32,000 bases of DNA from an uncultured Pelagibacteraceae bacterium (GTDB lineage Bacteria > Pseudomonadota > Alphaproteobacteria > Pelagibacterales > Pelagibacteraceae). The notes beneath the pieces are model-generated. The model saw only the letters and a list, made by a program, of their open reading frames with translations, was not told where the DNA came from and made no database searches. The DNA lies in contig CACBQD010000006.1 of assembly GCA_902541285.1 (NCBI GenBank), forward strand, positions 1 to 32,000. Reading direction: 5' to 3'. The position numbers and the translations under genes are program-made. Shown piece by piece: positions 1,207 to 18,020 of this stretch; position 1 is the first letter of the stretch; every line of letters begins with the position of its first letter.

Positions 1207-1652
1207 TGAAGAAAATCTATAAAAAATCTCAAATAAAAAATATTTTGAAAATTAATGATCCATTTTTAATGATTGATAAGATAAAAGTAATCCAGATGAA
1301 TAAAATCGCTGAGGGTGAAAAAAAAATAAAAAAAAAAGAATGGTTTTTTAAATCACATTTTTTTAATAATGATCCAGTTATGCCAGGTACTTTGCTAACA
1401 GAAGCAATGCTTCAAACAACTATAGTTAACCTTTATAAAGAAAATAAAAAAATAAAAAAATATTTCATTGTAAAATGTGAAAGCAATTATTTTTTTAAAA
1501 TATCTAAACCATGCACTATTAAAATAATTTCAAAAATAATCTCAAATAAACATGGAGTAATAATTGCAAAAAATTCAGTTTTTTTAAAAGATAAAATAAT
1601 TTCAAACGGTAAATTTAAATATATTGATCCAACAGCATTTAATTTAAACTAA
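1206..1652 (+). CDS. FabZ/FabA-like hotdog-fold 3-hydroxyacyl-thioester dehydratase
   Basis: 148 aa. SHFFNNDPVMPGTLLTEAMLQT matches the FabZ active-site block (HFPxxPVMPGVLxxEAxAQ). It is translationally coupled to the upstream gene. Confidence 0.65.
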   Translation: MKKIYKKSQIKNILKINDPFLMIDKIKVIQMNKIAEGEKKIKKKEWFFKSHFFNNDPVMPGTLLTEAMLQTTIVNLYKENKKIKKYFIVKCESNYFFKISKPCTIKIISKIISNKHGVIIAKNSVFLKDKIISNGKFKYIDPTAFNLN

Positions 1653-1655
1653 ATT

Positions 1656-2667: not shown

Positions 2668-4431
2668 TTATTTAGATTTTCTATTTTTTTTTATAATTGA
2701 TGAATTCCAGATATAGTCATGATAGCGATCTATTGACCATGGGAGAATAATTGGTCTAAAATTTACACTAAATTTATTATATTCTTGATAATTTATTCTT
2801 TTCGCAGTCATTAGAGAATAAATTTCATTTTTTAACACATCAGCTTTAGACGCAACAACTAAATTTGATAAAAAACCTTTACTGGCATATAAGCTATTTT
2901 TTGAATTTAGAAAATCGGAATAAACTATACTCTCAGGGGTTTTGTTACGATTTGAAAAAACTTTTTCACCAAAATTCAAGTTTAAATTTGAAAAAATAAT
3001 TATTCCAAAAAATAAAATAAAAAAATTAAATTTATTATAATTATATTTGTTAAATGATTTGATAAGAAGGTATGTGAATAAAGCTGGTAGCACATATAAT
3101 ATATGAGCAACTTGTGAAGTGGTTTTATTGCCAAACATATTTTCATTTCTTAAAAAAATTATAATTAAAAGCGAGAAAATTAAAAAATAAGAAAAAATAT
3201 TATTTTTTTTAAAATTTTTCGTAATTAAATAAAAAGGAATTACAAAAAAATAAATAAAAACAATTAGTATTTTATATAAATCATAATTGATTTTGAGAAA
3301 ATTTATTTTGTAAGCTTCTAAAATATTTTTTAGGTTGGTTTCATTTTTCTCGAAATTTAAAATATATTGACTAGAGTTTGTAATATTTTCTATATTTTGA
3401 GTTATAAAACCTGAAGGTATCCAACCTACTATTAATAAAGATTGAAAATATTCACTTAAGTTAAAAGGATTAAAAAAGGCTATTTTTGAATTAGCAACAG
3501 GTGATTGGACTAATACCCATGTTAATAAATTTAGAAAAACTAAAAAAGATAAAATATAAAATAAAAAATCTTTTCTTATAAACTTATATTTGAAAAAATA
3601 GTAAATTGGGAAAATAAGAAAAATAAAAATTATACCTGGTTTTGTCACAGTAAGTATTAATGCCAAATATGAATTAAATTTAATATTTGGCTCATCGTCA
3701 TTATCAAAATTAAATAAAAAAATAAAAAAAATAATTAAAGAAAAAATGCCAGAAAATGATAACGAATATGAAAAAAAATTTTCAAATACAAACAATAAAA
3801 TTACAAATAATATAAATATTAATATATATTTTATTTTACTCATATTTTTATTAGCCTGGTAAAAGAAAAAACAAATTGCTGTAAGAATACTACATATTAA
3901 AAGGTATCTTGCTTCTAATAGAGAGATTAAATTTAAATCCGAAATTAAAATTGAAGATGCGGTAAGTACAGATGTTGGAAAAAGAGGATGCGCTGTTAAT
4001 CTTGATGGAAAATAAGTAAAATTTTTTATGTTACCTATATAATCAGAATAATAAAGTTCAATTGATGGACTCCAGTATACTACATCATGAGATTCATAAA
4101 CTAAGTTTTTAAAATGAAATTGATGTAATAATAATAGAAAAAAAACATTTATAATTAAAAAAATTATAATTTTTGTTTTATTTTTAATGATGTCTTGTAA
4201 AAAAAAAATGTATTTTTTTTTATAAATAAAAATAAATAAATTTAAAATTAACACTGCGTAAGTGATAAAATATACATAGCCAGGTAAAATTCGAAATAAA
4301 AAAGAGATAGATAATGCAATTGTAAATAAGGCTGTTAAGTATCCAATTACAGTTCTGTTGGTTAAATTATATCCAAAAAATAAAATTAAAAGTTGTGTAA
4401 AGAAATATTGTAAGTAAACATAATTATGCAT
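2668..4431 (-). CDS. Large polytopic integral membrane protein, family unknown (candidate GT-C-type glycosyltransferase or glycan polymerase)
   Basis: 587-aa ORF dominated by many hydrophobic F/I/L-rich segments separated by short polar loops. There is an acidic/aromatic loop (ESHDVVYWSPSIELYYSDY) after the first helices. I recognise no soluble-domain motifs. Confidence 0.55.
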   Translation of the reverse strand: MHNYVYLQYFFTQLLILFFGYNLTNRTVIGYLTALFTIALSISFLFRILPGYVYFITYAVLILNLFIFIYKKKYIFFLQDIIKNKTKIIIFLIINVFFLLLLHQFHFKNLVYESHDVVYWSPSIELYYSDYIGNIKNFTYFPSRLTAHPLFPTSVLTASSILISDLNLISLLEARYLLICSILTAICFFFYQANKNMSKIKYILIFILFVILLFVFENFFSYSLSFSGIFSLIIFFIFLFNFDNDDEPNIKFNSYLALILTVTKPGIIFIFLIFPIYYFFKYKFIRKDFLFYILSFLVFLNLLTWVLVQSPVANSKIAFFNPFNLSEYFQSLLIVGWIPSGFITQNIENITNSSQYILNFEKNETNLKNILEAYKINFLKINYDLYKILIVFIYFFVIPFYLITKNFKKNNIFSYFLIFSLLIIIFLRNENMFGNKTTSQVAHILYVLPALFTYLLIKSFNKYNYNKFNFFILFFGIIIFSNLNLNFGEKVFSNRNKTPESIVYSDFLNSKNSLYASKGFLSNLVVASKADVLKNEIYSLMTAKRINYQEYNKFSVNFRPIILPWSIDRYHDYIWNSSIIKKNRKSK

Positions 4432-4444
4432 AAATTAAGATCTA

Positions 4445-5494
4445 ATGTTGTTAAATACAAAATTTTGGAAAAACAAAAAAGTTTTAATTACTGGCTGTAC
4501 TGGTTTCAGCGGATCATGGCTGATAATTTTTTTAAATATTTTGAGGTCTAGAGTTATTGGATACTCTCTTTCACCACCTTCTAAACCCAATCTTTTTAAT
4601 GTGCTAGGCTTAAAAAATAATATTCGTTTACATAATGGAGACATTAATAATTACAATAACTTAAAAAAAATAATCTATAAAGAAAAACCTGATATTATTT
4701 TTCATTTAGCGGCAAATGCTATTGTATTAGATTGTCATCGAAACCCGATTAAAACTTATAAAACAAATTCATTTGGAGTTTTGAATCTTTTAGAAATATT
4801 AAGACATTACAAAAAAAAAATTACAGTTAATATAATTACATCAGATAAATGCTACACAAATAAACAAAAAAAAAATGCATTATTTAATGAAGAAAGTTCA
4901 TTAGGTGGAGATGATGTTTACAGTGCATCAAAGGCTGTTGCTGAAATAATGGTTAATTCTTATCAAAAATACTTTTCTAATAATATTAAAATTTCAACAA
5001 TACGTAGTGGTAATATAATTGGAGGTGGTGATTGGGGAAAATACAGATTAATCACAGATATTGTTCTTTCTAAGTATAAAAATAAAAAATTTAATATTAG
5101 AAATTTAAATGCAATTAGACCATGGCAACATGTATATGATGTCATTCATGCATATTTATTAATTGCTCAATATACTTATATGACAAATAAATTTCAAAAT
5201 TGGAATGTTGCGCCAAATAATACCAGAATTTCAGTTAAAAAAATATGTTCTTTCTTTTTAAAAAAAAAAGAGTTTAAAATTAAATCTAAATATAAAAATA
5301 ATATAGAAAAAAAATTTTTATTACTTAATAGTAAAAAAATTAGAAAAATTATTAAGTGGAAACCATCTTTCTCGTATAAAGAAATGATGTACGACATTGA
5401 AAAATGGTACCATCTTTATTATAATTCAAAAAACATAAAGCAGCATAGTTATGATACTGCCAAATTATTTTTGAAAAGTATAAAGCTTAAATGA
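4445..5494 (+). CDS. rfbG: CDP-glucose 4,6-dehydratase
   Basis: 349 aa. The N-terminus FWKNKKVLITGCTGFSGSWL is typical of RfbG/DdhB. It has the SDR catalytic YSASK and a PWQHV block. Its stop overlaps the next start (ATGA). Confidence 0.8.
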   Translation: MLLNTKFWKNKKVLITGCTGFSGSWLIIFLNILRSRVIGYSLSPPSKPNLFNVLGLKNNIRLHNGDINNYNNLKKIIYKEKPDIIFHLAANAIVLDCHRNPIKTYKTNSFGVLNLLEILRHYKKKITVNIITSDKCYTNKQKKNALFNEESSLGGDDVYSASKAVAEIMVNSYQKYFSNNIKISTIRSGNIIGGGDWGKYRLITDIVLSKYKNKKFNIRNLNAIRPWQHVYDVIHAYLLIAQYTYMTNKFQNWNVAPNNTRISVKKICSFFLKKKEFKIKSKYKNNIEKKFLLLNSKKIRKIIKWKPSFSYKEMMYDIEKWYHLYYNSKNIKQHSYDTAKLFLKSIKLK

Positions 5495-6237
5495 ATCAAA
5501 ATAATTATAATCAAAATAAAGAATTATTTTTTAAAAAAGGTTACTTTGTAGTTAGAAGTGTAATTAAAAAAAGTACAATTAAAAAATTATTGGTAGAGAT
5601 TTATAAAGCAAAAAATACTGATAAATATACTGACACCAGGGGCAACCTTAGAAGAATTGAAAGACTTTACAACAAAGGTAAAACTTTAAGTGATTTAAAT
5701 CATAAAATCTTATTAATATTAAAAAGAGTTTTTGCAGAAAAATTTGTAATTTTCAAAGATAAATTTAATGCAAAGCCACCAGGTGGTGATGGATTTTATG
5801 CTCATTTTGACGGAGTATTTAAATTTACTAACCAAAAAAATGAAAAAAAAAACGGATGGTATGAGTATACTGATTTTTTTGTAAATTGTTTAATTGCACT
5901 CGATAAATGCAACAAGCGTAATGGATCTATTGAACTTTCAAATTTTCATAAAGGTAGTTTTGAAGATTTATTTAAAAAAACAAAAATGGATGGAACTCCA
6001 GCTTTAAGTGAAAAGACTTTAAAAAAGACAAAGTTTAATCTTATTAATTTAAATGAGGGAGATATGGTTTTTTTTTCAAATAAATGTCCTCATCAGTCCA
6101 AAAAAAATAATACAAATCATAGCAGAAGAATTCTTTACTACACCTATACAAAACTAAAAGACAAATCAAAATATTCACAATATTATAAAGATAAAATAAG
6201 AAGTAAAAATAAACTTAAAGCTTTAGAAGAGAAATAG
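5491..6237 (+). CDS. Phytanoyl-CoA dioxygenase (PhyH)-family Fe(II)/2-oxoglutarate-dependent dioxygenase
   Basis: 248 aa. It has an HxD iron motif (YAHFDG), a distal His (KCPHQS) and a downstream Arg pair (HSRRILYYTY), as in PhyH-type 2OG oxygenases. It shows ATGA coupling to rfbG. Confidence 0.65.
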   Translation: MNQNNYNQNKELFFKKGYFVVRSVIKKSTIKKLLVEIYKAKNTDKYTDTRGNLRRIERLYNKGKTLSDLNHKILLILKRVFAEKFVIFKDKFNAKPPGGDGFYAHFDGVFKFTNQKNEKKNGWYEYTDFFVNCLIALDKCNKRNGSIELSNFHKGSFEDLFKKTKMDGTPALSEKTLKKTKFNLINLNEGDMVFFSNKCPHQSKKNNTNHSRRILYYTYTKLKDKSKYSQYYKDKIRSKNKLKALEEK

Positions 6238-6323
6238 TTTTAAATTTAATTAAAATTTACTTTATTACTGTCAAAAATTTATTATTTTGTATTTATCCAA
6301 TAAATAAATTAAAAACTTAGATA
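6238..6323 (+). promoter_or_regulatory. Possible internal promoter ahead of the pepM-ppd-adh unit
   Basis: An 86-bp gap sits inside an otherwise overlapping or abutting co-directional block. It is the only sizeable spacer upstream of pepM. Confidence 0.25.
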
Positions 6324-7625
6324 ATGAAAAAAAAAACTGTATATGTTGGTTTAGCTGCTGATATTCTCCATAAAGGACATATTAATATTCTTAAAACTGC
6401 CAATAGATATGGAAATGTTATTGTTGGACTTTTGACAGATCAGGCAATTGCAAGTTACAAAAATATTCCTTACTTAAATTATGAAAAAAGGAAAGTTGTA
6501 ATAGAAAATATTAGATATGTAAAAAAAGTAATACCTCAGGATACATTAGATTACATATATAATTTAAAATTAATAAAACCTGATTATGTGGTTCACGGAG
6601 ATGATTGGAAAACAGGTGTTCAAAAAAAAACAAGAGAAAGAGTAATAAAAACATTAAAAAAATGGTCTGGCAAACTAATAGAACCAAAATATACAAAAAA
6701 TATATCATCTACTTTAATCAAGAAAGAAATGAACAATTTAATTTATTCACCAGAAAATAGAGTTTCAAGATTAAAAAGATTGATTAATTCAAAAGAAATT
6801 GTAAGAATTTTAGAGTCTCATAATTCTCTTACCGGATTAATTATTGATAAAATTAATGTTGAAAAAAATAAAAAGGTTGTTGAATTTGATGGAATGTGGT
6901 CATCAAGTTTGACTGACTCTGCAACTAAAGGTCTTCCTGATAATTCCTCACTATCATTTTCTGCTCGGATTGCATCTTTAAACGATATGATGGATGTAAC
7001 AGCTAAACCACTAGTTTTTGACGCAGATAATGGTGGCCAGATAGAACATTTACCATTTTTAGTTAGATCTTTAGAGAGATCAGGGGCATCTGCAATTATT
7101 ATGGAGGATAAAGTAGGTCTTAAAAAAAATTCACTATTCAAAGATCAATCTGGGGCTAAACAAGATAAACCACAACTTTTTGCAAAAAAAATTAAAAAAA
7201 TTTGTAACTCAAGACAGTCACAAGATTTTATGGTTATAGCTAGAATTGAAAGTTTTATAGTGGGTAAAAGTCTAAAAGATGCTTTACACAGGGCAGAAAT
7301 TTACTCAAAAGCTGGAGCAGATGCTATTTTAATACACAGTAAGGAAAAAACACCTGCTCAAATTTTTTCATTTGCTAAAGAATTTAAAAAAAGTAAGAAT
7401 TTTAAACCTTTAGTTTCTGTTCCATCTACATATTCAAAAGTTTATGAAAAAGATTTAATAAAAAATGGCTTTAAATTAGTTATCTATGCCAATCAATTAT
7501 TAAGAGCTGCTTATCCCGCTATGCAAAATACAGCACGAACCATATTAAAAAATAAAAGAGCTTTCGAAGCTGATAAAAAAATTATTTCAATTAAAGAAAT
7601 AATTAATTTAGTTAAAAATGATTAA
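6324..7625 (+). CDS. pepM: Bifunctional HxGH-type cytidylyltransferase / phosphoenolpyruvate phosphomutase
   Basis: 433 aa. Residues 1 to about 135 carry VYVGLAADILHKGHINIL, RYVKKVI and VVHGDDW, as in TagD/ECT/CCT-class cytidylyltransferases. Residues from about 150 to 433 carry ESHNSLTGL, FDGMWSSSLTDSATKGLPD, DADNGGQ and EDKVGLKKNS. The last is an exact EDKX5NS PEP-mutase discriminator. Confidence 0.85.
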   Translation: MKKKTVYVGLAADILHKGHINILKTANRYGNVIVGLLTDQAIASYKNIPYLNYEKRKVVIENIRYVKKVIPQDTLDYIYNLKLIKPDYVVHGDDWKTGVQKKTRERVIKTLKKWSGKLIEPKYTKNISSTLIKKEMNNLIYSPENRVSRLKRLINSKEIVRILESHNSLTGLIIDKINVEKNKKVVEFDGMWSSSLTDSATKGLPDNSSLSFSARIASLNDMMDVTAKPLVFDADNGGQIEHLPFLVRSLERSGASAIIMEDKVGLKKNSLFKDQSGAKQDKPQLFAKKIKKICNSRQSQDFMVIARIESFIVGKSLKDALHRAEIYSKAGADAILIHSKEKTPAQIFSFAKEFKKSKNFKPLVSVPSTYSKVYEKDLIKNGFKLVIYANQLLRAAYPAMQNTARTILKNKRAFEADKKIISIKEIINLVKND

Positions 7626-8718
7626 AGTTACTACTTTAATTAATTTATTAAAAAAAAATGGTATAGATTTTTATACTGGAGTCCCAGACAGTATTTTAAA
7701 GGAACTTTCTTTTTCACTGCAAAGTAAAAATAAAAAAAAACATATTATTGCAACAAATGAAGGCTCAGCCGTCTCAATTGGTATTGGCCATTATCTATCT
7801 ACAAAAAAATTACCTGCTATTTACATGCAAAATTCTGGTTTATCTAATGCTTTAAACCCATTAATCTCAATAGCTCATAAAAAAGTATATTCCATTCCAT
7901 TAATTTTAATAATTGGATGGAGAGGCTCTCCACGAATTAAAGATGAACCTCAACATAATGTAAAAGGTAAAATTACTAAACAAATTTTAAAACTACTTAA
8001 TATAAAATATACCGTTTTACGATCAACTTCTGATTTAAATAAATTTCACAAACAAATTAAAGTAGCGAAAAAAGATAAATCCATAGTAGCTTGCTTAATA
8101 GAGCAGGGCACTCTTGAAAAAAATAAAAAAATTAAAGCAAAAAAGAATTTTTATAATTTAGACAAAGAGTTTTTTTTAAAAAATTTATTAAAGAATATAA
8201 AAAATCAAACAAAGATTATTTCTAGTACAGGATATAATTCAAGAGAATTAATGTATATAAAGGATAAATATAAATTCAAAAATAGTAAAGATTTTTATAT
8301 GGTTGGTGGCATGGGGCATACTTCTTCTGTAGCTCTTGGATATTCTCTGTTCAACAAAAAAAAAATTATTTGTATAGATGGTGACGGATCACTTATAATG
8401 CATTTAGGTTCAATAAAAACAGCAGGAACTTTTGCAAATAAAAATTTTAAATATATTTTGTTAAATAATAATACTCATGATTCTGTGGGTGGCCAAAGCA
8501 CTTACACAAATAATATTGATTTTGAAAAACTTTCGAAAAGTTTAGGATTTAAAAAATTTCATTCTATAAAAAGTAAAAAAAATTTAAATCAAAATATTAA
8601 AAAATTTCTGTACGAAAAAAATTTAGGTTTTTTAGAGGTACAAGTCTCTAAAAGTAAAATAAAAAAACTTCCTAGACCAACAGATTTGATTAAAATAAAA
8701 AATGAATTTATGAGTTAA
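7618..8718 (+). CDS. ppd: Phosphonopyruvate decarboxylase (ThDP-dependent)
   Basis: 366 aa. The N-terminus (GIDFYTGVPDS) is typical of Ppd/sulfopyruvate-decarboxylase-like enzymes. The ThDP motif is GDG-X25-NN (GDGSLIMH...ILLNNNTHDSVGGQ). An 8-nt overlap (ATGATTAA) links it to pepM. Confidence 0.8.
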   Translation: MIKVTTLINLLKKNGIDFYTGVPDSILKELSFSLQSKNKKKHIIATNEGSAVSIGIGHYLSTKKLPAIYMQNSGLSNALNPLISIAHKKVYSIPLILIIGWRGSPRIKDEPQHNVKGKITKQILKLLNIKYTVLRSTSDLNKFHKQIKVAKKDKSIVACLIEQGTLEKNKKIKAKKNFYNLDKEFFLKNLLKNIKNQTKIISSTGYNSRELMYIKDKYKFKNSKDFYMVGGMGHTSSVALGYSLFNKKKIICIDGDGSLIMHLGSIKTAGTFANKNFKYILLNNNTHDSVGGQSTYTNNIDFEKLSKSLGFKKFHSIKSKKNLNQNIKKFLYEKNLGFLEVQVSKSKIKKLPRPTDLIKIKNEFMS

Positions 8719-9822
8719 ATGATCAATTCTATTGAGGATATAAAAAAATTCATTAACGACAAAAAACATAAAAAAATATTTGTTTTGTGTGGAAAAAAAT
8801 CTTATGAAACCTCTGGTGCAAAAGAACTTTTTAAAGCAATGCTTTCTGAGAAAGAAATTAATATTTTTTACAAAAAATCCGAATTACCTATTCTTAAAGA
8901 ACTGATAGAAATTATTATAAATGTAAAAAATTTTAAACCAGATTTAATTTTAGCAGTTGGTGGTGGGGCGATTATTGATTATGCTAAAATAGCAAATGTC
9001 GTCGATGTAAGACCTGATCTTGCAGAACTAATAAAAAATTATGTATATCCATTTAAAAAAAAATATACAAAACTAGCAGTAATCCCAACTACTGCAGGAT
9101 CTGGAGCTGAGGTTACTTCAAATGCAGTAATTTATGTAGATGGAATTAAACATTCTTTTGAAAGTGAGTTATTAATACCAGATAATTTTTTTTTAATCCC
9201 AGAATTTTTAATTTCTGCACCAAAAAAAATTAAAGCATCAGCCGGGTTTGATGCTATCGCACAAGCTTTAGAATCATTGATTTCAAAAAAATCAAATTCT
9301 AAAAGTGTCGAATATGCAACAAAATCCTTAGAAATCTCAACGAAGAGTTTTATATCATTTTTAGACAATCCAAATAAAATAAACGCTACTGAAATGAGTA
9401 TAGCATCTAATTTGGCAGGAAAGGCGATTAGCATATCTAAAACAACTGCTCCACATGCAACATCATATCCATTTACATCTTTATTTCAAATTAGCCACGG
9501 TCATGCAGTAAGTCTTTTTTTTGAAAATTTTTTTAAATTTAATTTTGATAATTTAGAAAGATCAGAAACAAAATTTGACTTAAAAAAAAGGTTTGATTTA
9601 ATTTTCAGAATTTTTGAAGTAAAAAATATTGAAAATTTTACATCAAAAATTTCATCAATAAAAAAAAAAGCAAATCTTGAAGATAATTTGCTCAATTTAA
9701 ATATTAATTTAAAAAATAATTCTGAAGAAATAATAAAAGGCATAAATTTATTAAGATTAGGAAATAATCCAATAAAAATAGATGGAAAAGATATCTATGA
9801 CATAATTAAAAAAAATAATTAG
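8719..9822 (+). CDS. Group III iron-containing alcohol dehydrogenase, probable phosphonoacetaldehyde reductase (forms 2-hydroxyethylphosphonate)
   Basis: 367 aa. It has GGGAIIDYAK (the GGGSxxD nucleotide motif), PTTAGSGAEVT and His-rich metal motifs (APHATSYPF, SHGHAVS). It starts on the base after the ppd stop. Confidence 0.7.
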   Translation: MINSIEDIKKFINDKKHKKIFVLCGKKSYETSGAKELFKAMLSEKEINIFYKKSELPILKELIEIIINVKNFKPDLILAVGGGAIIDYAKIANVVDVRPDLAELIKNYVYPFKKKYTKLAVIPTTAGSGAEVTSNAVIYVDGIKHSFESELLIPDNFFLIPEFLISAPKKIKASAGFDAIAQALESLISKKSNSKSVEYATKSLEISTKSFISFLDNPNKINATEMSIASNLAGKAISISKTTAPHATSYPFTSLFQISHGHAVSLFFENFFKFNFDNLERSETKFDLKKRFDLIFRIFEVKNIENFTSKISSIKKKANLEDNLLNLNINLKNNSEEIIKGINLLRLGNNPIKIDGKDIYDIIKKNN

Positions 9823-9892
9823 GAGATGTCTGTAAATTTGAAATATATAAGTATAATATCTTTTAATTATTAAAAAATAAATTTTGAAATAT

Positions 9893-10672
9893 ATGAAATG
9901 TGTAATATTAGCAGGTGGACTCGGTACTAGATTATTTGAAGAGACACAAACTAAGCCTAAAGCTTTAGTAGAAGTAGGTGGCAAAACATTAATAGAGCAC
10001 ATCATAGATCAATTTTCTAAACATGGAATTAATGATTTTATTGTATGTCTCGGTTATAAGGGAAATCTTATAAAAAAATATTTTGTTGATTATTATAACA
10101 ATAATTTAGATTTTTCGATAGATTTTTCAAAAAACAAATTTTTTTTTGAAAAAAAGTTTAACAGAAAATGGAAAATAACTTTTGTAAATACAGGTCTAGA
10201 TACAGGAACCGCAGGCAGAATTAAGCTAATAAAAAATTATTTGAAAAATGAAAAATCTTTTTTTCTTACATATAGTGATGGGGTATCAAATATAAACTTA
10301 AAAAAACTCCTTAAATCCCACATTAAAAGTAAAAAAAAAGTTACAATGTGTGTGACCAGACCAAAAAATAGATATGGAATTGCTAACATAAAAAAAAACA
10401 TTCTTGTATCATTTAATGAAAAAAAAAGAGTCGATAAAAATAATAACTGGATAAATGCTGGTTTCTTCGTGTTAAATACAAATGTAATTAGTCAATTAAG
10501 TAGTGTTAAGGAATATTTTGAGGCCGAGCCACTCTCTCAACTTATAAAAAAAAATAACGTATCTATTTATAGACACAATGACTTTTGGAGATCTATTGAT
10601 ACTTTAAAAGATAAAACTGAGTTGGAAAAAATATGGAAAAAATATAAAACTTGGGATTTAAAGGGAATATAA
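9893..10672 (+). CDS. rfbF: Glucose-1-phosphate cytidylyltransferase
   Basis: MKCVILAGGLGTRLFEETQTKPKALVEVGGKTLIEHI...DFIVCLGYKG is nearly collinear with Salmonella RfbF/DdhA. I prefer the ATG at 9893 to the TTG at 9884 given in the ORF track. Confidence 0.8.
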   Translation: MKCVILAGGLGTRLFEETQTKPKALVEVGGKTLIEHIIDQFSKHGINDFIVCLGYKGNLIKKYFVDYYNNNLDFSIDFSKNKFFFEKKFNRKWKITFVNTGLDTGTAGRIKLIKNYLKNEKSFFLTYSDGVSNINLKKLLKSHIKSKKKVTMCVTRPKNRYGIANIKKNILVSFNEKKRVDKNNNWINAGFFVLNTNVISQLSSVKEYFEAEPLSQLIKKNNVSIYRHNDFWRSIDTLKDKTELEKIWKKYKTWDLKGI

Positions 10673-10677
10673 CTTTT

Positions 10678-11319
10678 TTATGACCTAAGATATGTATAAA
10701 TTAGTAAAATAAAATAATAGAGCAGAGTATAGACGCTCATCAACAGAAGATACTCCTTGTGAAGGTTTAAAATTATAAAGCATGATCCCCAAAATAACAT
10801 ATTTGTTCTTGTAAATATAAAATATTCAATTAATTTAAAAAAAGTACTCTTTCTTAAATTGTTTTGATCAAATTTAGGTAAAAAAACTATCATAGAAAAA
10901 TAAATATTATCTATACAAAATCTAAAACTAATAAAAATAAGTCCACAAATTAAAAAATAAATATTATTCTCGAATATATAATTTGAGGATATAATTGCTA
11001 AAATAAAAAAATTATCTGCAAGCCTATCTAATGTACAATCCAAATGAGCACCAAACGAAGACTGCAATTTTTTTTTAATTGCTAGATCTCCATCAGCACA
11101 ATCAAAAATAAGAGATAAATTTATTAAAATAAAACTAATTAAATTAAAATAATTATTTCCTTTAAAAATAATAAATGGCAGAGAAACAACTATTAAAAAA
11201 AATGATAAATAAGAAAGGTTATTTGGAGTTATTTTAGTATTTATTATTTTATTAACAATATATCTTGAAAAAATTCTATAAATTTTTTCTATACCTATAT
11301 CAGACCTTACCGCACTCAT
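10678..11319 (-). CDS. CDP-alcohol phosphatidyltransferase-family integral membrane transferase
   Basis: 213 aa with several hydrophobic helices. DCADGDLAIKKKLQSSFGAHLDCTLDRLAD fits D-x2-DG-x2-A(R)-x8-G-x3-D-x3-D, with Ile in place of the usual Arg. Confidence 0.75.
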   Translation of the reverse strand: MSAVRSDIGIEKIYRIFSRYIVNKIINTKITPNNLSYLSFFLIVVSLPFIIFKGNNYFNLISFILINLSLIFDCADGDLAIKKKLQSSFGAHLDCTLDRLADNFFILAIISSNYIFENNIYFLICGLIFISFRFCIDNIYFSMIVFLPKFDQNNLRKSTFFKLIEYFIFTRTNMLFWGSCFIILNLHKEYLLLMSVYTLLYYFILLIYTYLRS

Positions 11320-11339
11320 ATTTTTAATTTTTAAAAAAA

Positions 11340-12275
11340 TTATTCAATACTTTTTATAATTATTGTTTTATCAAATTTTTTTAATTGATTATAAATTTTT
11401 CCAACGTATTCTCCAATAATACCAATAAAAATACTGTTTAAAGCAAGTATTATCAGCATCAGAAAAACTAAAGTTGTAAAGCCTTGAGGACTACTAGCAG
11501 GGTCAAAAATTTTTTGAATAAAATAATAAATTAATCCTACTACAGAAAAAAAGGAAATCATTAATCCAAACAATGTAGCCATTCTTAGCGGGGCTATAGT
11601 ATGATTTGTAATATTTTTAAATGATTCCATTATATATTTAAAAAAATTAAATTTAGTCTTTCCAGCTTTTCTTTCCTCTCTTACATGCTCTATTCCATAA
11701 TTCTTAAAACCTAAAGAGTAAATAAATCCCCTTAAATAAGTGTCACGTTCATCCATAGATTTAATTATTTTGATAATTTTTTCATCAATTAACGAGAAAT
11801 CTCCAACATCATTTTTTAACTCAGAATGACTTAAAAAATTAATAGTTCTATAGAAAGCTTTTCTTAAATTTTTTATTATAAAATTTTCTTTTCTATTTTT
11901 TCTAATTCCATAAACATAATCATACCCTTCTTCCCATTTTTTTATGAATTCTTCAATCAATTCTGGAGGATCTTGTAAGTCGCAGTCTAATTGAATAGCT
12001 GCTGATCCGTTTGCTAATTTATATGCGTTTATTAATGATCTTTCTTTTCCTATATTATTTGAGAATGAAAAACATTTTACATTTTTATCAGTCAAGTTTA
12101 TTTTTTTTATAATTTCAAAACTATTATCTGAACTGTTATTATCTGTGAATATAATTTCATACTTATAAACTTTACTATATTTAACAAAAATATTTTTTAT
12201 TTTTTCATAAATTGATTTAATATTTTCTTCTTCGTTTAAGATAGGTATACAAATACTAATTATTTTTTTTTCCAT
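11340..12275 (-). CDS. GT2 polyprenyl-phosphate glycosyltransferase (ArnC/GtrB/DPM-synthase-like) with C-terminal membrane helices
   Basis: 311 aa. Motifs are ISICIPILNEEENI, IIFTDNNSSDNS, QLDCDLQDPPE, GIRKNRKE and VGDFSLID. Two C-terminal TM segments end in IGIIGEYVGKIY, which is typical of this subfamily. Confidence 0.8.
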   Translation of the reverse strand: MEKKIISICIPILNEEENIKSIYEKIKNIFVKYSKVYKYEIIFTDNNSSDNSFEIIKKINLTDKNVKCFSFSNNIGKERSLINAYKLANGSAAIQLDCDLQDPPELIEEFIKKWEEGYDYVYGIRKNRKENFIIKNLRKAFYRTINFLSHSELKNDVGDFSLIDEKIIKIIKSMDERDTYLRGFIYSLGFKNYGIEHVREERKAGKTKFNFFKYIMESFKNITNHTIAPLRMATLFGLMISFFSVVGLIYYFIQKIFDPASSPQGFTTLVFLMLIILALNSIFIGIIGEYVGKIYNQLKKFDKTIIIKSIE

Positions 12276-12319
12276 CTGGACAATATATAATTTTTTTAGA
12301 AGATATAAAAAGTAATTAA

Positions 12320-13228
12320 TTATTTTTTTCTAATCAAATATTCTATGTAAAAAAACACTCCCATTATAGCTGATGGAATACCTCTGCTTATAAAGAATAT
12401 TGAAATCAATATAATTTCCTCAGGAGACAATAATTTGCTAAAAATTAATAGGATAAAAAACTCTCTAAAACCAATACCATTATAAGTTATGGGTATAAAT
12501 CCAATTAGTGATATTAAGCTTACAAATGAAATGATTTTAAAAAATGAAAAATTATCAACTTCTAAAAATTTAACAAAAATATAGAAGTGAACAAAAGTTA
12601 AGAAAATAAATATTATATTTATAAATAAAATAACATGAAAATTTTTATTATTTTTTGTATATTTTAAAAATATTTTTCCCAATTTATATAATATGTTAAC
12701 TTTTATTAAGTTAAATAAATACTGAATATTTTTTAAAATTAAAAAATAGACCAAAACAAATAATATTGTTAAAAGTATGTAGGTTAACTTAATCTCATTT
12801 AAATAAAAAATAATGAAAATAGATAAAAAAACATAAACAGTTATCTCAAAAAACTTATCGACAATCATTATTTCTAAATTTTTTAAATAATTGATTTTAA
12901 AAAATTTCTTTAATAAATAAATTTTTTTTACTTCCCCTAATTTAAAAGGTAATATAAAATTTAAAAAACTTGAGATAAAAAATATTTTTAAAAGTTTTTG
13001 TTCTTTAATTTTTTTTCCTAAGAGTAAGGTAAATTTTTTAACATTTAGTAGTGTTTGGACTATACAAATTATATATGATGAAAAAAAAATATTATTATTT
13101 AGATTTATTAATAAAAGTTGAAATTTATCAAAATCAACTTTTTTAAGAAAAAAAAAAATTAAAATTAAGCTTATAATAAAAATAAAAAACGAAAAAAGAT
13201 TTTTTAGCGATTTAAAATAATAAAACAT
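12320..13228 (-). CDS. Polytopic membrane protein, possibly a flippase-like (LPG-synthase-TM/UPF0104-type) partner of the adjacent GT2
   Basis: 302 aa and almost entirely hydrophobic helices. The assignment rests only on size, topology and position directly downstream of the ArnC-like gene. Confidence 0.4.
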   Translation of the reverse strand: MFYYFKSLKNLFSFFIFIISLILIFFFLKKVDFDKFQLLLINLNNNIFFSSYIICIVQTLLNVKKFTLLLGKKIKEQKLLKIFFISSFLNFILPFKLGEVKKIYLLKKFFKINYLKNLEIMIVDKFFEITVYVFLSIFIIFYLNEIKLTYILLTILFVLVYFLILKNIQYLFNLIKVNILYKLGKIFLKYTKNNKNFHVILFINIIFIFLTFVHFYIFVKFLEVDNFSFFKIISFVSLISLIGFIPITYNGIGFREFFILLIFSKLLSPEEIILISIFFISRGIPSAIMGVFFYIEYLIRKK

Positions 13229-14056
13229 TTAATCTTTGTTAAAATCTCGATTTAAAGACATTTTCAAATAATTTATTAAATCATTACTATTACTTTTTAA
13301 GAAAATTTTTTGAAATGGTAATATAATTTTATTTTCTTCTATAGTATCTTTATTTTTTTTATTAAAAAGAATACTGATATTCTTAATTTTATTTAGATCA
13401 TTAACTTTGATAAATTTTTTATTGCATATACAAATCTTTTTATTGGAGAAATCCCAATTCCTATTACAAAGTTTAAAAATATGTTTTGTTAAATTACTTA
13501 CATTTATAAAATTAAGTTTTAATTTTTTATAGAATATTAATTTTTCATTAGGTTTTTTTATAAGTTTTGTATAAAATTTACTCCTATTATCATTATCTCC
13601 AAAAGTGTTGAAAAGATAAATACCAAGTATCCTCGTAAACTTTTTTCTTTTCGAAATGTAATTTGTAAATTTTTTTTTAGATAAGAGATATGGATATAGT
13701 TTGCTCTTATTTTTTTCATATTCATGAACTGAACCAAAGTAAACAAATTTTTTGATTAAATTTTTTTCACATATTTCAAAAAATTTTTTCGAATATATAT
13801 AATTCACTCTCATACACTTTTTTTTCTCAGAAAGTCCACGCTTATTAGAGAAATAAGTAGCTGCATGTATAACTATATCAGGTTTAAATTTAAAAAAAAT
13901 TTTTTCAATTTTGTTTTCAAATTCTTCTAGAGATAATTTTGTACAATTTTTGAAAAAAATTTTTTTAATTTTAGATTTTTTGAGAAATCTAGTGTATATA
14001 TTCTTTCCAATGAAACCTCTTTGTCCCGTTATTAATACATTCATTAAAAAATACAT
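13229..14056 (-). CDS. NAD(P)-dependent sugar epimerase/reductase (extended SDR)
   Basis: 275 aa. It has the Rossmann motif NVLITGQRGFIGKNI and YxxxK (YLLSK). The start may be Met5 (14044), which places GxxGxxG at the usual distance. Confidence 0.65.
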   Translation of the reverse strand: MYFLMNVLITGQRGFIGKNIYTRFLKKSKIKKIFFKNCTKLSLEEFENKIEKIFFKFKPDIVIHAATYFSNKRGLSEKKKCMRVNYIYSKKFFEICEKNLIKKFVYFGSVHEYEKNKSKLYPYLLSKKKFTNYISKRKKFTRILGIYLFNTFGDNDNRSKFYTKLIKKPNEKLIFYKKLKLNFINVSNLTKHIFKLCNRNWDFSNKKICICNKKFIKVNDLNKIKNISILFNKKNKDTIEENKIILPFQKIFLKSNSNDLINYLKMSLNRDFNKD

Positions 14057-14058
14057 AT

Positions 14059-14799
14059 ATGAAAAAGAAAATAATTTCTAGAAAACAGTTTTTTAAAAAC
14101 TCTGAACTTTATAAAAAAAAAATGTCAAACAACTCTAAAGTTCAAAAATTAGCAAATCAGCTAATTGTTCATTCCGATAGAAATAATTGGTCATACCAAC
14201 ACACTTGGATGAATGAACCAATGCTACAGACTCCTGAAGATATTATTAAAATCCAAGAAATTATATTTAAATACAAACCAACAATAATTTTTGAAATTGG
14301 TATCGCTTGGGGTGGTATGTTACTTTATTTGGATACAATTAAAGAAAAAGCTAATATTAAAAAAATTATTGGTGTTGATATTTTTATTCCAAAAGATTTA
14401 AGAGATAGACTAAATAAAAAAAAATCAAATTCTGTCCAAATTATAAAAACATCTTCTATCGACGAAAAATTGACAAAAAAATTTAAAAAAATTAAAGGTA
14501 ATAATAAATGCTTAGTTCATTTAGACTCAAATCATACTGAGGAGCATGTTTTAAACGAATTAAGATTTTATGATAAAATTTTAAATAAAAATGATCTAAT
14601 AATCGTTGGAGATACTGTAATAAATTATATTCCAATCCAAAAACATAGAATACGAGAATGGAATAAAAAAAAAAATCCTAAAACAGCATTGGATAAGTTT
14701 TTAAAAGAAAATAAGAATTACAAAATAATAAAAAATTTATCATTTAACTTACTTTTAACTAATAATAAATTTGGTCACATAATAAAAACTAGAAATTAA
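14059..14799 (+). CDS. CmcI/cephalosporin-hydroxylase-family SAM-dependent (sugar O-)methyltransferase
   Basis: 246 aa. YQHTWMNEPMLQTPEDIIKIQEIIFKYKPTIIFEIGIAWGG and HLDSNHTEEHV match the CmcI-type class I methyltransferase pattern. Confidence 0.6.
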   Translation: MKKKIISRKQFFKNSELYKKKMSNNSKVQKLANQLIVHSDRNNWSYQHTWMNEPMLQTPEDIIKIQEIIFKYKPTIIFEIGIAWGGMLLYLDTIKEKANIKKIIGVDIFIPKDLRDRLNKKKSNSVQIIKTSSIDEKLTKKFKKIKGNNKCLVHLDSNHTEEHVLNELRFYDKILNKNDLIIVGDTVINYIPIQKHRIREWNKKKNPKTALDKFLKENKNYKIIKNLSFNLLLTNNKFGHIIKTRN

Positions 14800-14854
14800 A
14801 AATAAAAAATTAAAAATATTTGAAAATAATTAATAAAACAGATTTTAAATTAAT

Positions 14855-15784
14855 ATGAATAAAATAGTAATTACTGGTGGACTAGGTCATATCGGAACAT
14901 CTTTAATACCCAAACTTTTATATAATAAAAAGAATAAAGTTGTAGTTATAGATAATTTGAGTACTTCAACGATAAATATTTTTTTCAAATTTCTAGAAAG
15001 AAAATATTTTAATAGATTGAACTTTATTAAAATTGATTTAAGTAAAAAATTTAAACCTGATATTTTTAAAAAATCGAATATAGTAATTCATTTATCGGGA
15101 TATACTGATCAAGAAAAAAGCTTTGATAAATCAGTTAATATTATAGAAAATAATTTTGGCTCTACAAAAAATATTGTATTAGCTTGCAAAAAATATAATA
15201 TTCCACTAATTTTTCCTTCAACAACCAGCTTATATACGCCAAGAAAAAAAAAAGATGTATTTCTAACTGAGGAAAGTACAGAATTATTCCCAAAAACACC
15301 ATATGCAAAATGTAAATTAAAAGAAGAAAATTATATAAAAAAAAAAATAAATAAATTTTTGATTTTAAGGCTAGCCACAGTTGTAGGATATTCTGAAGGT
15401 ATGAAATTTCATACAGTGGTAAATAAATTTTGTTTATATTCTAAATTAAACAAAAAACTTCCTGTATGGAGTACTGCATATAACCAGGTTAGACCTTATC
15501 TTTCTATAGAAGAGCTTGTTGAAAATATTTTGTTCTTTATAAAAAATAATTCAGTTCAAATAGACGGTAGAACTATAAACCTTTTAACTGAAAATCTATC
15601 TACTAAAGAAATAATTGACAAAATAAAAAAATTTATTCCTGCAAAAATAAAAATTATTAATTCAAAGTCTATGAATAAAACAAGTTTTGAATTAAAGAAA
15701 AATTTTTATGGAACTAACACAAATAAAAAATTTACTATAGAAAAATCTATTAAAAATTTGATTAAAATGCTAAATTTTATCTAA
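14855..15784 (+). CDS. NAD(P)-dependent sugar epimerase/dehydratase/reductase (extended SDR)
   Basis: 309 aa. It has KIVITGGLGHIGTSL (GxxGxxG) and YAKCK (YxxxK). Its 3' end overlaps the convergent fdtA-like gene by 15 bp. Confidence 0.65.
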   Translation: MNKIVITGGLGHIGTSLIPKLLYNKKNKVVVIDNLSTSTINIFFKFLERKYFNRLNFIKIDLSKKFKPDIFKKSNIVIHLSGYTDQEKSFDKSVNIIENNFGSTKNIVLACKKYNIPLIFPSTTSLYTPRKKKDVFLTEESTELFPKTPYAKCKLKEENYIKKKINKFLILRLATVVGYSEGMKFHTVVNKFCLYSKLNKKLPVWSTAYNQVRPYLSIEELVENILFFIKNNSVQIDGRTINLLTENLSTKEIIDKIKKFIPAKIKIINSKSMNKTSFELKKNFYGTNTNKKFTIEKSIKNLIKMLNFI

Positions 15785-16147
15785 ACTATAAAAATAATCC
15801 TTTTTATCAAAATCTTTATCACATAAAACAAGCAATTCAGAGTTATATTTTTTAAACTTGATACGTATCCAATTCTTCTTTGGCACAAATATTGAGTCAT
15901 ATTTTTTTAGTATGAAATTTTTTTTACTTATTTTATTTTCAACTTCTAACGTAATTGAGTCACATAGAGATAGAAATATTTGGTTACAATTTTTGTGTCC
16001 ATGCTCACCTCTTATAAGTTTTTTATCTGATTTAATTAAAAAAAATCTTTTTAAATTAAAATTTTTTAAAATATTTTTGTTAAGAATTAATGTACCTTTG
16101 TCATTAATTATTTTTTTTTTTTTTAATCGTTTTGTTTTTTTAATCAT
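15770..16147 (-). CDS. FdtA/QdtA/WxcM-like cupin, NDP-4-keto-6-deoxyhexose 3,4-ketoisomerase
   Basis: 125 aa. It has DKGTL, RGEHGHKNCNQIF (the RGxHAHK..Q core), WIRIKF and ELLVLCDKDFDKKDYF, which is the typical C-terminal block. Confidence 0.7.
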   Translation of the reverse strand: MIKKTKRLKKKKIINDKGTLILNKNILKNFNLKRFFLIKSDKKLIRGEHGHKNCNQIFLSLCDSITLEVENKISKKNFILKKYDSIFVPKKNWIRIKFKKYNSELLVLCDKDFDKKDYFYSLDKI

Positions 16148-16164
16148 CTGATATAAAATAATTT

Positions 16165-17142
16165 ATGAATATAATTGTTACAGGTGGTTTGGGTTTCATT
16201 GGCTCAACATTTATTAAAAAAGCAATTAAGAATAAAAATATTAATATATTTAATATTGATAAAAAAACTTATGCTTCATTTGATCACAATAAAAAATTAA
16301 TAAAAATTTCCTCGTATAAATTTTACAAAATAGATATATCAAATTATTTAAAATTAAAAAATATAATAAGTAAAATTAAACCTGATTATATTATTAATTT
16401 TGCTGCAGAAACACATGTAGATAGATCAATTGTGGATCCATCAGTTTTTATTAAATCAAATATTATTGGTACATTTAATATATTGAAATCTATTAAAAAT
16501 TTAAATTTGATAAAAAAAACTAAATTCGTTCAAATTTCAACAGATGAAGTATTTGGTTCAACTAAATCAAAAAAAACTTTTAACGAAAATTCAAAATACA
16601 CTCCAAATTCACCATATTCAGCATCTAAAGCTTCGGCAGATCATTTGGTAAGAAGTTTTAATAAAACTTATAATTTAAAAACTATTATTGTTCACCCTTC
16701 AAATAATTTTGGTCCATTTCAATATTTAGAAAAACTTATACCTGTAATAGTTACGTGCTGTATAAATAAAAAGAGAATTCCTATTTATGGTAGGGGAAAG
16801 CAAGTAAGAGATTGGTTATTTGTTGAAGATACGGCTGATGCAATATATAAAATTATACAAAACGGAAAAGTTGGCGAAAATTACAATATAACTACGCGAA
16901 ATCTACTGCCAAATATAAAGCTTGTGAAAATGATATGCACAATTTATGATAAAATCACAAACAGTAATCAAAATAGTTTCAAATTAGTCAAGTTTGTTAA
17001 AGATAGACCGGGTCATGACTTTAAGTATAATATTTCAAATAAAAAAATTATCGACCAACTTGGCTGGAAATTCAAAAAAAATTTTAAACAAAAATTAAAA
17101 ATAACAGTTAATTGGTACATACAAAATTATAAAAAAAAATAA
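16165..17142 (+). CDS. rfbB: dTDP-glucose 4,6-dehydratase
   Basis: 325 aa with NIIVTGGLGFIGSTF, FAAETHVDRSI, STDEVFGS and YSASKASADHLVRSF. Confidence 0.85.
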   Translation: MNIIVTGGLGFIGSTFIKKAIKNKNINIFNIDKKTYASFDHNKKLIKISSYKFYKIDISNYLKLKNIISKIKPDYIINFAAETHVDRSIVDPSVFIKSNIIGTFNILKSIKNLNLIKKTKFVQISTDEVFGSTKSKKTFNENSKYTPNSPYSASKASADHLVRSFNKTYNLKTIIVHPSNNFGPFQYLEKLIPVIVTCCINKKRIPIYGRGKQVRDWLFVEDTADAIYKIIQNGKVGENYNITTRNLLPNIKLVKMICTIYDKITNSNQNSFKLVKFVKDRPGHDFKYNISNKKIIDQLGWKFKKNFKQKLKITVNWYIQNYKKK

Positions 17143-18020
17143 TGAAAGGTATATTGTTAGCTGGTGGAGAAGGATCAAGATTTAGACCAATTACAAATTC
17201 TATATCTAAGCATTTTCTACCCATTTTTGATAAGCCTGTAATTTATTATTCTTTATCTCTACTATTTTTAGCAAAAATAAAAGACATTTTGATTATATGT
17301 AAAGAAAATGATTTAAAAAATTTTAAAAAAATTCTAGGTAATGGAGAAAATTTTGGTATCAAGATAAGTTACAGTATTCAAAAACATCCAAATGGAATCC
17401 CAGAAGCATTTAAAATTGGAAAAGAGTTTATTGGAAAAGAAAATGTGTGTCTCACTTTAGGTGACAATTTTTTTTATGGACAAAGTTTAGCTAAAACTAT
17501 TTTAAAAGCAAAAAATACAAAATCAGGAGCAAGAATACTAGCAATTCAAGTAAACAATCCTAAAGACTTTGGCGTTATAAACTTTAGAAAAAATAAAATT
17601 ATTTCTATTGATGAAAAACCAAAAAAACCAAAGTCAAATTTTATTATTCCAGGTATGTATTTTTACGAAAACAGTGTTGTAGATTATGTAAAAAAATTAA
17701 AACCTTCGAAAAGAAATGAATTAGAAATCAGTGATATTAACAAGATTTATTTAAAAAAAAAAAAATTAAAAGCCTTTAAAATGGGAAGAGGTATTGCATG
17801 GCTTGATACAGGAACCCCTGAAAGTTTAATATCAGCAAGTAATTTCGTTTACTCAGTTGAAAAGCTACAAGGTTTTAAGATCGCATGTTTAGAAGAAATA
17901 GCTCTTAATAATAAATGGATATCAAAAAATTTTTTAATTAAAATTTTAAAAAAACAAAAAATTAATACAAGTTATTACAATTATATAAAGAAAATAATTA
18001 ATAAAAATAATCAAAAATAG
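17142..18020 (+). CDS. rfbA: Glucose-1-phosphate thymidylyltransferase
   Basis: 292 aa. MKGILLAGGEGSRFRPITNSISKHFLPIFDKPVIYYSLSLL is collinear with RmlA. It overlaps rfbB by 1 nt (TAATG). Confidence 0.85.
   Translation: MKGILLAGGEGSRFRPITNSISKHFLPIFDKPVIYYSLSLLFLAKIKDILIICKENDLKNFKKILGNGENFGIKISYSIQKHPNGIPEAFKIGKEFIGKENVCLTLGDNFFYGQSLAKTILKAKNTKSGARILAIQVNNPKDFGVINFRKNKIISIDEKPKKPKSNFIIPGMYFYENSVVDYVKKLKPSKRNELEISDINKIYLKKKKLKAFKMGRGIAWLDTGTPESLISASNFVYSVEKLQGFKIACLEEIALNNKWISKNFLIKILKKQKINTSYYNYIKKIINKNNQK

Follow-up and report, generated by a model that had tools for sequence, protein, structure and literature searches.

Our analysis of 32,000 nucleotides of DNA from an uncultured Pelagibacteraceae bacterium (Pelagibacterales, SAR11; GenBank assembly GCA_902541285.1, contig CACBQD010000006.1, positions 1 to 32,000 of the forward strand; hereafter the window, meaning this whole stretch) concerned a small gene at 10678..11319 on the minus strand, which encodes a membrane protein of 213 amino acids (aa) from the cytidine diphosphate (CDP)-alcohol phosphotransferase family (PF01066) and adjoins a phosphonate cassette. 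This enzyme probably transfers a phosphonyl group from the cytidylylated phosphonate made next door to a hydroxyl acceptor; with the cytidine monophosphate (CMP) conjugate of 2-hydroxyethylphosphonate (HEP) as proposed donor, it would be a CMP-HEP:acceptor phosphonyl transferase. We infer its donor, activity and acceptor from sequence, predicted structure and gene neighborhood only. The strongest arguments for the function are the presence of three unrelated transferase families in one slot after the cassette, and the independent recurrence of PF01066 genes beside pepM, the gene for phosphoenolpyruvate mutase (PepM). A preliminary description of the locus had proposed a Kennedy-type route of this kind on two grounds. 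The ground of gene context is supported by the HEP genes, a Fom1-type cytidylyltransferase domain, the linkage across loci and the slot equivalents, while the argument from an arginine-to-isoleucine change in the signature motif is not supported.

A word-indexed search for orthologs returned only about 20 clusters, at 63-99% identity and all of marine origin. The closest named relative is annotated as Candidatus Pelagibacter sp., and the other close relatives come from marine metagenomes. In all 11 loci with usable flanks (L001-L008 together with L097, L113 and L117, the last three found independently by a PepM search), the ortholog immediately follows the HEP cassette and is oriented convergently to it. 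The outer flank is more variable; for example, in L001 the glycine-cleavage genes gcvP/H/T replace the gene for a 587-aa protein found in the window. The gap between the PF01066 gene and the stop codon of the convergent glucose-1-phosphate cytidylyltransferase-like gene (rfbF) is exactly 5 bp in the window, as first described, and in the two loci without rfbF (L097 and L117) the PF01066 gene abuts the Fe-dependent alcohol dehydrogenase (Fe-ADH) gene. L117 keeps the other module genes, and a search of 10 kb on each side found no homolog of rfbF or of the CDP-glucose 4,6-dehydratase gene rfbG, even at a threshold of E 0.01; the Fom1-type domain is the sole cytidylyltransferase detected in the 10 kb flanking PepM on each side. 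CDP-glucose is therefore an unlikely donor, and as an obligatory donor it is ruled out by the absence of rfbF from L097 and L117.

The slot taken by the PF01066 gene is filled by other transferases in the nearest annotated cassettes of this kind. Fulvitalea axinellae (L093) and Segatella copri (L094) share with the window the order of a cytidylyltransferase-PepM fusion, phosphonopyruvate decarboxylase (Ppd) and reductase, with PepM identities of 54% and 44%, respectively. In the place of PF01066, however, Fulvitalea has a convergent LicD gene, and Segatella a gene of the CDP-glycerol glycerophosphotransferase family (TagF-like) followed by O-antigen genes. The PF01066, LicD and TagF-like families all use CDP-activated donors and release CMP. 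Within the PF01066 superfamily, the eukaryotic ethanolamine and choline phosphotransferases accept the CMP conjugate of 2-aminoethylphosphonate (AEP) and make phosphonolipids, as described in the Tetrahymena literature; unlike the window protein, these enzymes have about ten helices and the canonical motif arginine, and their acceptor is diacylglycerol.

PF01066 genes also accompany pepM outside SAR11. A 'phosphonolipid' cluster with a CDP-alcohol phosphatidyltransferase and hpnL has been drawn for Nostoc and Burkholderia (PMC5987646, Fig. 7). It is matched by our Burkholderia cenocepacia locus (L096), in which PF01066 and LPG_synthase_TM genes are directly followed, all in one direction, by a nucleotidyltransferase-PepM fusion, Ppd and an AEP transaminase (AEPT). 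The cluster and the window have in common PF01066, LPG_synthase_TM, a nucleotidyltransferase-PepM fusion, Ppd and a 2-oxoglutarate (2OG) oxygenase. They differ in that the Nostoc/Burkholderia cluster is AEP-based (AEPT, not Fe-ADH), has nucleotidyltransferases of PF12804, is co-directional, and lacks the glycosyltransferase of family 2 (GT2) and the 587-aa gene of the window; the Burkholderia PF01066 protein shares 27% identity over 84 residues with the window protein and keeps the motif arginine. The same logic is known from the PntC/LicC-LicD systems, in which a phosphonate is activated by conjugation to CMP before its transfer to a glycan or lipid of the cell surface, a sequence explicitly likened to the Kennedy pathway (Rice 2019, PMC6697681); PF01066 is not mentioned in the main text of that paper. 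Those systems rely on AEP-specific cytidylyltransferases of PF12804 with LicD-like transferases nearby, whereas the window combines PF01467, HEP and PF01066.

The putative donor would be supplied by a plus-strand operon (4445..10672) that codes for six proteins. PepM, Ppd and Fe-ADH together form the standard route to HEP. The PepM fusion (6324..7625, +; PF01467 and PF13714) exceeds the TIGR02320 cutoff (357.6 vs 319.55) and carries the motif EDKVGLKKNS, of the EDKxxxxxNS type, and Ppd (7618..8718, +) likewise exceeds that of TIGR03297 (372.8 vs 312.5). The Fe-ADH (8719..9822, +; PF00465 and PF25137) is likely a phosphonoacetaldehyde reductase making HEP, and the Fulvitalea and Segatella genes in this position are annotated as such. 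No aminotransferase was found among the 20 open reading frames (ORFs) scanned against Pfam between 13 and 21720. Residues 1-134 of the fusion, the cytidylyltransferase domain, match PDB 5x3d at E 1e-49, compared with 1.6e-16 for ethanolamine-phosphate cytidylyltransferase (ECT), the next best, and 1e-10 for TagD; 5x3d, although named phosphoenolpyruvate phosphomutase, is the isolated N-terminal domain of Fom1. The order of domains is also that of Fom1 from the fosfomycin pathway of Streptomyces wedmorensis. In that pathway, CMP-HEP serves as a temporary handle, which Fom3 methylates and which is hydrolyzed at a later step. The window has neither Fom3 nor FomD, and instead a PF01066 transferase comes after the cassette. 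The Fom1 domain converts HEP and CTP to CMP-HEP (Rice 2019, PMC6697681), so that a PepM with a domain of this type makes CMP-HEP the likely product of the locus, a conclusion that we regard as well supported by the sequence.

Three further genes complete the operon. The rfbG gene (4445..5494, +; TIGR02622 331.8 vs a cutoff of 278), absent from L117, and the rfbF-like gene (9884..10672, +; TIGR02623 277.1, just under the cutoff of 300.25) are optional accessories; in some loci they bracket the phosphonate genes within one operon, and from others they are missing. Between them, a 2OG/Fe(II) dioxygenase of the PhyH family (5491..6237, +; PF05721 E 5e-12), whose start codon overlaps the stop of the dehydratase gene, is weakly PhnY*-like, scoring 68.8 bits against the NF052437 methylphosphonate hydroxylase model (cutoff 500), and had no sequence match in the PDB. 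This gene accompanies the HEP cassette in many loci, whichever transferase partner is present, and its product may hydroxylate HEP or CMP-HEP, for example to 1,2-dihydroxyethylphosphonate.

The sequence and the predicted structure indicate that the 213-aa protein is most likely an active enzyme of the CDP-alcohol phosphotransferase fold. Members of this family are metal-dependent and move a substituted phosphate from a CDP-linked donor, releasing CMP. The match to PF01066 (CDP-OH_P_transf) has an E value of 1.4e-11 and 45.5 bits against a gathering score of 22, and AF2299 of Archaeoglobus fulgidus is the best solved relative by sequence (HMMER, E 1.7e-11). The signature motif DCADGDLAIKKKLQSSFGAHLDCTLD (residues 73-98; 11026..11103, -) stands in register with DGCDGEIARLKFMESKYGAWLDGVLD of AF2299 in the HMMER alignment, and seven of its eight signature residues are present (D73, D76, G77, A80, G90, D94 and D98, corresponding to D1, D2, G1, A, G2, D3 and D4). 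The eighth, arginine, is replaced by Ile81 (codon 11077..11079). This confirms both the motif of the preliminary description, with isoleucine for arginine, and its register, for which alignment to characterized members had been proposed as the check. The four aspartates, both glycines and the alanine are invariant across SAR11 orthologs over the range of 63-99% identity, and their ORFs are full-length; the invariance of these residues argues for a working catalytic site.

The multi-helix membrane protein foreseen from the translated ORF agrees with an AlphaFold model built on 40 relatives, which was all-helical (pLDDT 91, pTM 0.88) and displays the juxtamembrane helix and six-helix transmembrane fold of the family. 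Foldseek identified AF2299 (4o6m/4q7c) as the best fold in the PDB (template-modeling (TM) score 0.80, root-mean-square deviation 2.5 A, about 205 columns), followed by IPCT-DIPPS (TM 0.73) and the phosphatidylinositol-phosphate (PIP) synthases (0.62-0.72), with weak matches to CHPT1 and CEPT1 (0.44-0.60). AF2299 and IPCT-DIPPS, both from A. fulgidus, thus lead by sequence and fold and carry the motif in the same register on TM2-TM3; they differ from the window protein, which is a transmembrane domain only, in having an extra cytoplasmic domain and the canonical arginine. The donor of DIPPS is CDP-inositol, and we know of no substrate for AF2299. The NCBIfam DIPPS model scored 36.3 against the window protein (cutoff 580), and no inositol-phosphate cytidylyltransferase is fused to it.

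The same comparisons make it extremely unlikely that the gene encodes a housekeeping phospholipid synthase of the PgsA, PssA, Pcs or PIP-synthase type, although such enzymes share its Pfam family, and its small size and six-helix membrane architecture would suit one of them. The NCBIfam models for archaetidylinositol-phosphate (AIP) synthase (69.3 vs 180), PIP synthase (41.1 vs 170) and ClsA (20.2 vs 240) all scored far below their cutoffs, as did every other equivalog compared, with a further score of 30.8 vs 350 in the set of AIP/PIP synthase, PgsA, PssA and ClsA models, and the candidate was rejected. The nearest folds were AF2299 and DIPPS, not PgsA or PSS, and the gene lies in a variable island and is restricted to the roughly 20 marine clusters.

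The replacement of the motif arginine had been read as suggestive of phosphonate use, with the reasoning that a CMP-phosphonate differs from a CDP-alcohol in charge and geometry where the arginine would contact the beta-phosphate. In CMP-HEP and CMP-AEP, a P-C bond replaces the P-O-C linkage of CDP-alcohols, and the beta-phosphorus and the net charge are kept. This rationale is therefore wrong. The distribution of the substitution also fails to follow phosphonate genes. Among 21 SAR11-clade sequences (the window protein and 20 clusters), the site holds I, V, L, T or K but never R, whereas arginine is present in about 120 of 130 representatives outside that clade. The pepM-linked PF01066 protein of Burkholderia cenocepacia retains it (DHTDGELARISGKSSKIGHFYDLAAD), while a Bathyarchaeia/Thermoproteota clade of about 200 aa has lost it (DGVDGDLA[L/A/V/I/K]). 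Near the 11 loci of the latter clade (L017, L018, L019, L022, L027, L028, L032, L039, L044, L048 and L049), pepM was absent, with the full 10 kb on each side covered for L022, L028 and L032; 10 of the 11 have an NTP_transferase gene within 2.5 kb, none being detected in L028. Other relatives without the arginine, P0061 (I), P0037 (A) and P0063 (S), are on contigs of just 0.9-1.8 kb, in which a LicC-like NTP_transferase gene comes after P0037 and P0063. A phosphonate-specific arginine-to-isoleucine adaptation was rejected on the chemistry of the donor, the variable site, the arginine kept in Burkholderia, the arginine lost in Bathyarchaeia with no pepM in the sequence covered, and the Cho1 mutagenesis and neighboring lysines described below.

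Loss of this residue might alternatively mark a catalytically impaired or non-enzymatic relative that can no longer position a CDP-alcohol. All 21 SAR11-clade sequences have the arginine replaced, and R-to-A or R-to-M changes severely lower the activity of yeast Cpt1 and IPCT-DIPPS (cited in PMC8727905). However, the R133A variant of Candida Cho1 has wild-type activity, for which compensation by neighboring basic residues was proposed by the authors (PMC8727905). In the window protein, Ile81 is followed by Lys82-Lys84, of which K83 is invariant and K82 and K84 are common. In addition, none of the other seven signature residues varies, the ORFs stay full-length over the whole range of 63-99% identity, and the Bathyarchaeia clade still keeps an adjacent nucleotidyltransferase without the arginine. 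We therefore consider impairment very improbable; the missing arginine is a clade feature, probably tolerated thanks to the adjacent Lys82-Lys84, and is not an adaptation to phosphonates.

The wider family gives a view of how such enzymes obtain their donors. When 1.84 billion representative proteins were searched with a profile, the SAR11 clade stood isolated among the 12,589 hits (next best hit E 3e-38); the best non-orthologous relatives, P0024 and P0025, are on short contigs. Among 61 distant relatives with a recognizable motif, 33 have an NTP_transferase gene within 2.5 kb. A further 14 relatives, mostly from Clostridia and other Bacillota, have a TagD-like cytidylyltransferase in the locus, several of them directly beside the gene. 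Such frequent neighbors imply that the clade is typically paired with an enzyme making its CDP-linked donor. No pepM was found with any of 80 distant genome relatives, within sequence reaching at most 10 kb on each side. A SAR11 paralog from a sister clade that retains the arginine occurs in L014 (8848..12450; Pelagibacteraceae single-cell genome AG-422-B15), between genes for a CBS-NTP_transferase and an asparagine synthase and with KARI-like, SDR and GAPDH-like genes upstream. In L009, a gene with an Asn-synthase domain lies two genes downstream of the PF01066 gene. The arrangement in L014 and L009 resembles a pathway that would supply a different CDP-activated head group.

These relatives bear on the possibility that the window enzyme uses an ordinary CDP-alcohol (CDP-glycerol, a CDP-polyol or the CDP-hexose of rfbF/rfbG) to build an O-antigen or capsule unit with the GT2 and flippase-like proteins, pepM being only an island neighbor. 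The pairing of distant relatives with NTP_transferase, and with pepM in none of the 80 within at most 10 kb on each side, would be consistent with such a role, as would the SAR11 paralog that comes after CBS-NTP_transferase, the rfbF-like cytidylyltransferase that ends 5 bp away, and the position of the gene at the end of a minus-strand block of its own, behind those for the epimerase, LPG_synthase_TM and GT2. Nevertheless, L097 and L117 keep the gene against Fe-ADH without rfbF, and L117 also without rfbG, and all 11 orthologs remain beside the HEP cassette despite their range of identity and differing outer flanks. For a CDP-hexose donor in particular, we know of no PF01066 enzyme that uses a nucleotide sugar. 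An ordinary CDP-alcohol donor is thus unlikely in our view, if well short of negligible, and we favor the transfer of the phosphonyl group made next door.

If so, the pathway would proceed as follows. PepM, Ppd and Fe-ADH would make HEP, and the Fom1-type domain would activate it to CMP-HEP. The donor, either CMP-2-hydroxyethylphosphonate itself or a form of it that the PhyH enzyme has hydroxylated, would bind at the conserved di-metal aspartate site of the PF01066 enzyme. On the cytoplasmic side of the inner membrane, the phosphonyl group would then be passed to the hydroxyl of an acceptor, with release of CMP. Candidate acceptors are a polyprenyl-phosphate sugar or diacylglycerol; once flipped, the product would face the periplasm and be either displayed on or handed over to a glycan, lipid or protein of the cell surface.

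Genes that travel with the PF01066 gene point in this direction. The minus-strand block is transcribed in the order epimerase, LPG_synthase_TM, GT2 and CDP-OH_P_transf, such that the PF01066 gene is the last (3'-most) gene of the block and not, as had been stated, its head. The neighbors named earlier, an ArnC/GtrB-like GT2, a flippase-like protein and a cytidylyltransferase domain on PepM, were all found. The GT2 gene (11340..12275, -; PF00535 E 2e-23) encodes a polyprenyl-phosphate glycosyltransferase-like protein resembling PgfS (E 4e-61), ArnC (E 4e-40) and GtrB, with both of the scored models under their equivalog cutoffs, and wherever the flank is long enough it is found with the PF01066 gene. 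Next to it is a membrane protein of the LPG_synthase_TM family, similar to the MprF flippase domain (12320..13228, -; PF03706 E 2.4e-24), which had no significant sequence match in the PDB. The first gene of the block encodes a short SDR-type epimerase or reductase (13229..14056, -; PF01370 E 1e-15), and is kept in L006-L008 and only partly in L117.

On the other side of the operon, the 587-aa orphan (2668..4431, -) is a polytopic membrane protein without a Pfam match even at E 1. It contains many invariant His, Arg, Glu, Asp and Lys residues, and none of its 24 homolog clusters has a Pfam match, two being named only 'hypothetical protein'. Its AlphaFold model was of moderate quality (pLDDT 70.6), with a best Foldseek match in the PDB at E 0.19 (TM about 0.1) and no PDB profile match. 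The gene travels with the PF01066-type module in L003, L004, L113, L117, L103 and L157; it is missing from L001 and from those cassettes that have a different partner. The co-travelling GT2, MprF-like and 587-aa proteins suggest an acceptor anchored in the membrane or on a lipid and subsequently exported. A more specific version, in which the whole module (2668..14056) forms a previously undescribed Arn/Gtr-like surface phosphonate route, with a polyprenyl-phosphate sugar from GT2, an HEP ester formed by the PF01066 enzyme that lacks the arginine, an MprF-like flip, and delivery by the 587-aa protein to a periplasmic glycan or protein, is unlikely.

The acceptor might instead be HEP itself or the growing product, CMP-HEP units being joined through the free 2-hydroxyl to give a teichoic-acid-like poly(hydroxyethylphosphonate), or another CDP-activated group might be placed on HEP to yield a phosphodiester-phosphonate head group. 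HEP has a free hydroxyl in addition to its phosphonate, and a second one could come from the PhyH-family dioxygenase. The nearest solved relatives, AF2299 and IPCT-DIPPS, also have small polar substrates, AF2299 having been solved with CMP or CDP bound, and the donor and acceptor of DIPPS are both soluble. Such a polymer would be without precedent, however, and the GT2 and flippase-like genes that travel with the enzyme suggest that the acceptor is a lipid or a sugar linked to one. We therefore regard HEP as acceptor as quite improbable.

Several observations weigh against phosphonyl transfer by the PF01066 enzyme. Its gene is convergent to the phosphonate operon and lies in a separate transcription unit, within a hypervariable island of the surface-glycan type where adjacent genes need not share a pathway. 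The cassette does not need the gene, which about three of 21 informative close cassette relatives hold (those with a PepM identity of 78-91% and 0.9 kb or more of sequence past the Fe-ADH gene). Dependence runs one way, with the enzyme tied to the cassette but not the cassette to the enzyme. A GT-C-type transferase role considered for the 587-aa protein found no support from Pfam at E 1, Foldseek or the PDB profile search. We know of no PF01066 enzyme from bacteria with demonstrated use of a CMP-phosphonate. Finally, the enzyme lacks an arginine whose replacement by alanine or methionine cripples yeast Cpt1 and IPCT-DIPPS (cited in PMC8727905).

The close relatives of the cassette carry various partners in its place. 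In L101, L110, L121 and L126, the slot is taken by a convergent protein of 575-578 aa (e.g., L101 13590..15323) with a faint C-terminal sulfatase/alkaline-phosphatase-like match (E 7.5e-4, short of the Pfam threshold); such a domain would be akin to head-group transferases of the EptA/LtaS type. Other partners are a sulfotransferase-like protein with a methyltransferase (L125 13740..15942, +), a GT2 with a radical-SAM enzyme (a 494-aa radical-SAM protein, possibly Fom3-like, at L138 10439..11920, -), and a second tandem cytidylyltransferase-PepM copy (L159 6212..7507, +). This variety suggests several different phosphonate end products within SAR11 populations. The Ppd gene in L003 (4429..5530; GCA_001757525.1) is split into ORFs of 266 and 106 aa and is intact in the near-identical L004, reflecting either a frameshift pseudogene or an assembly error.

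The gene content of the surrounding sequence, as identified with Pfam and NCBIfam, marks a surface-polysaccharide island, with dTDP- and CDP-sugar genes, several glycosyltransferases and an ATP-binding cassette (ABC) exporter. The G+C content of the window is about 22%, which together with the close relatives of the 213-aa protein marks it as SAR11-type sequence; at this composition, promoter and terminator scans were uninformative (40 promoter-like sites vs 35.6 expected, and 0 terminators). On one side of the module, a LuxC-like acyl-CoA reductase and a Zn-alcohol dehydrogenase adjoin it (13..2663, +), and L003 has an additional FabA-like dehydratase at the matching position; these genes hint at fatty aldehyde or alcohol chemistry beside surface-glycan genes. 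Past the module (14059..19738) are genes for RmlA, RmlB, an FdtA-like isomerase, a protein of the CmcI/rhamnosyl O-methyltransferase family, an epimerase and an ABC exporter. This dTDP-sugar and ABC exporter set is kept in L006. It points to an ABC-transporter-dependent glycan, which could be the final acceptor.

Both the Kennedy-like phosphonate logic (Rice 2019) and a cluster combining pepM with a CDP-alcohol phosphatidyltransferase (PMC5987646) are already published. Marine surveys have listed glycosyltransferases, LicD, choline kinase and sulfatase among the neighbors of pepM, and PF01066 is not on these lists (PMC8931226, PMC9381506). The features that appear to be undescribed are a HEP-based SAR11 module, its Fom1-type cytidylyltransferase, a PF01066 clade without the motif arginine, and the GT2, flippase-like and orphan partners. 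With respect to the family, our results remove loss of the motif arginine as a supposed signature of phosphonate use, and show the HEP cassette to be portable, with CMP-releasing transferases of three or more unrelated families as its partners.

The interest of the locus is also ecological. According to published reports, pepM in the surface ocean is carried predominantly by Pelagibacterales, with the gene in about 18% of SAR11 cells, and phosphonate production by SAR11 has not yet been demonstrated (PMC8931226, PMC9381506). The compact SAR11 module described here, with CMP-HEP as a plausible donor and a specific candidate transferase, makes the attachment step directly testable. SAR11 may be a major source of phosphonate esters in the sea.

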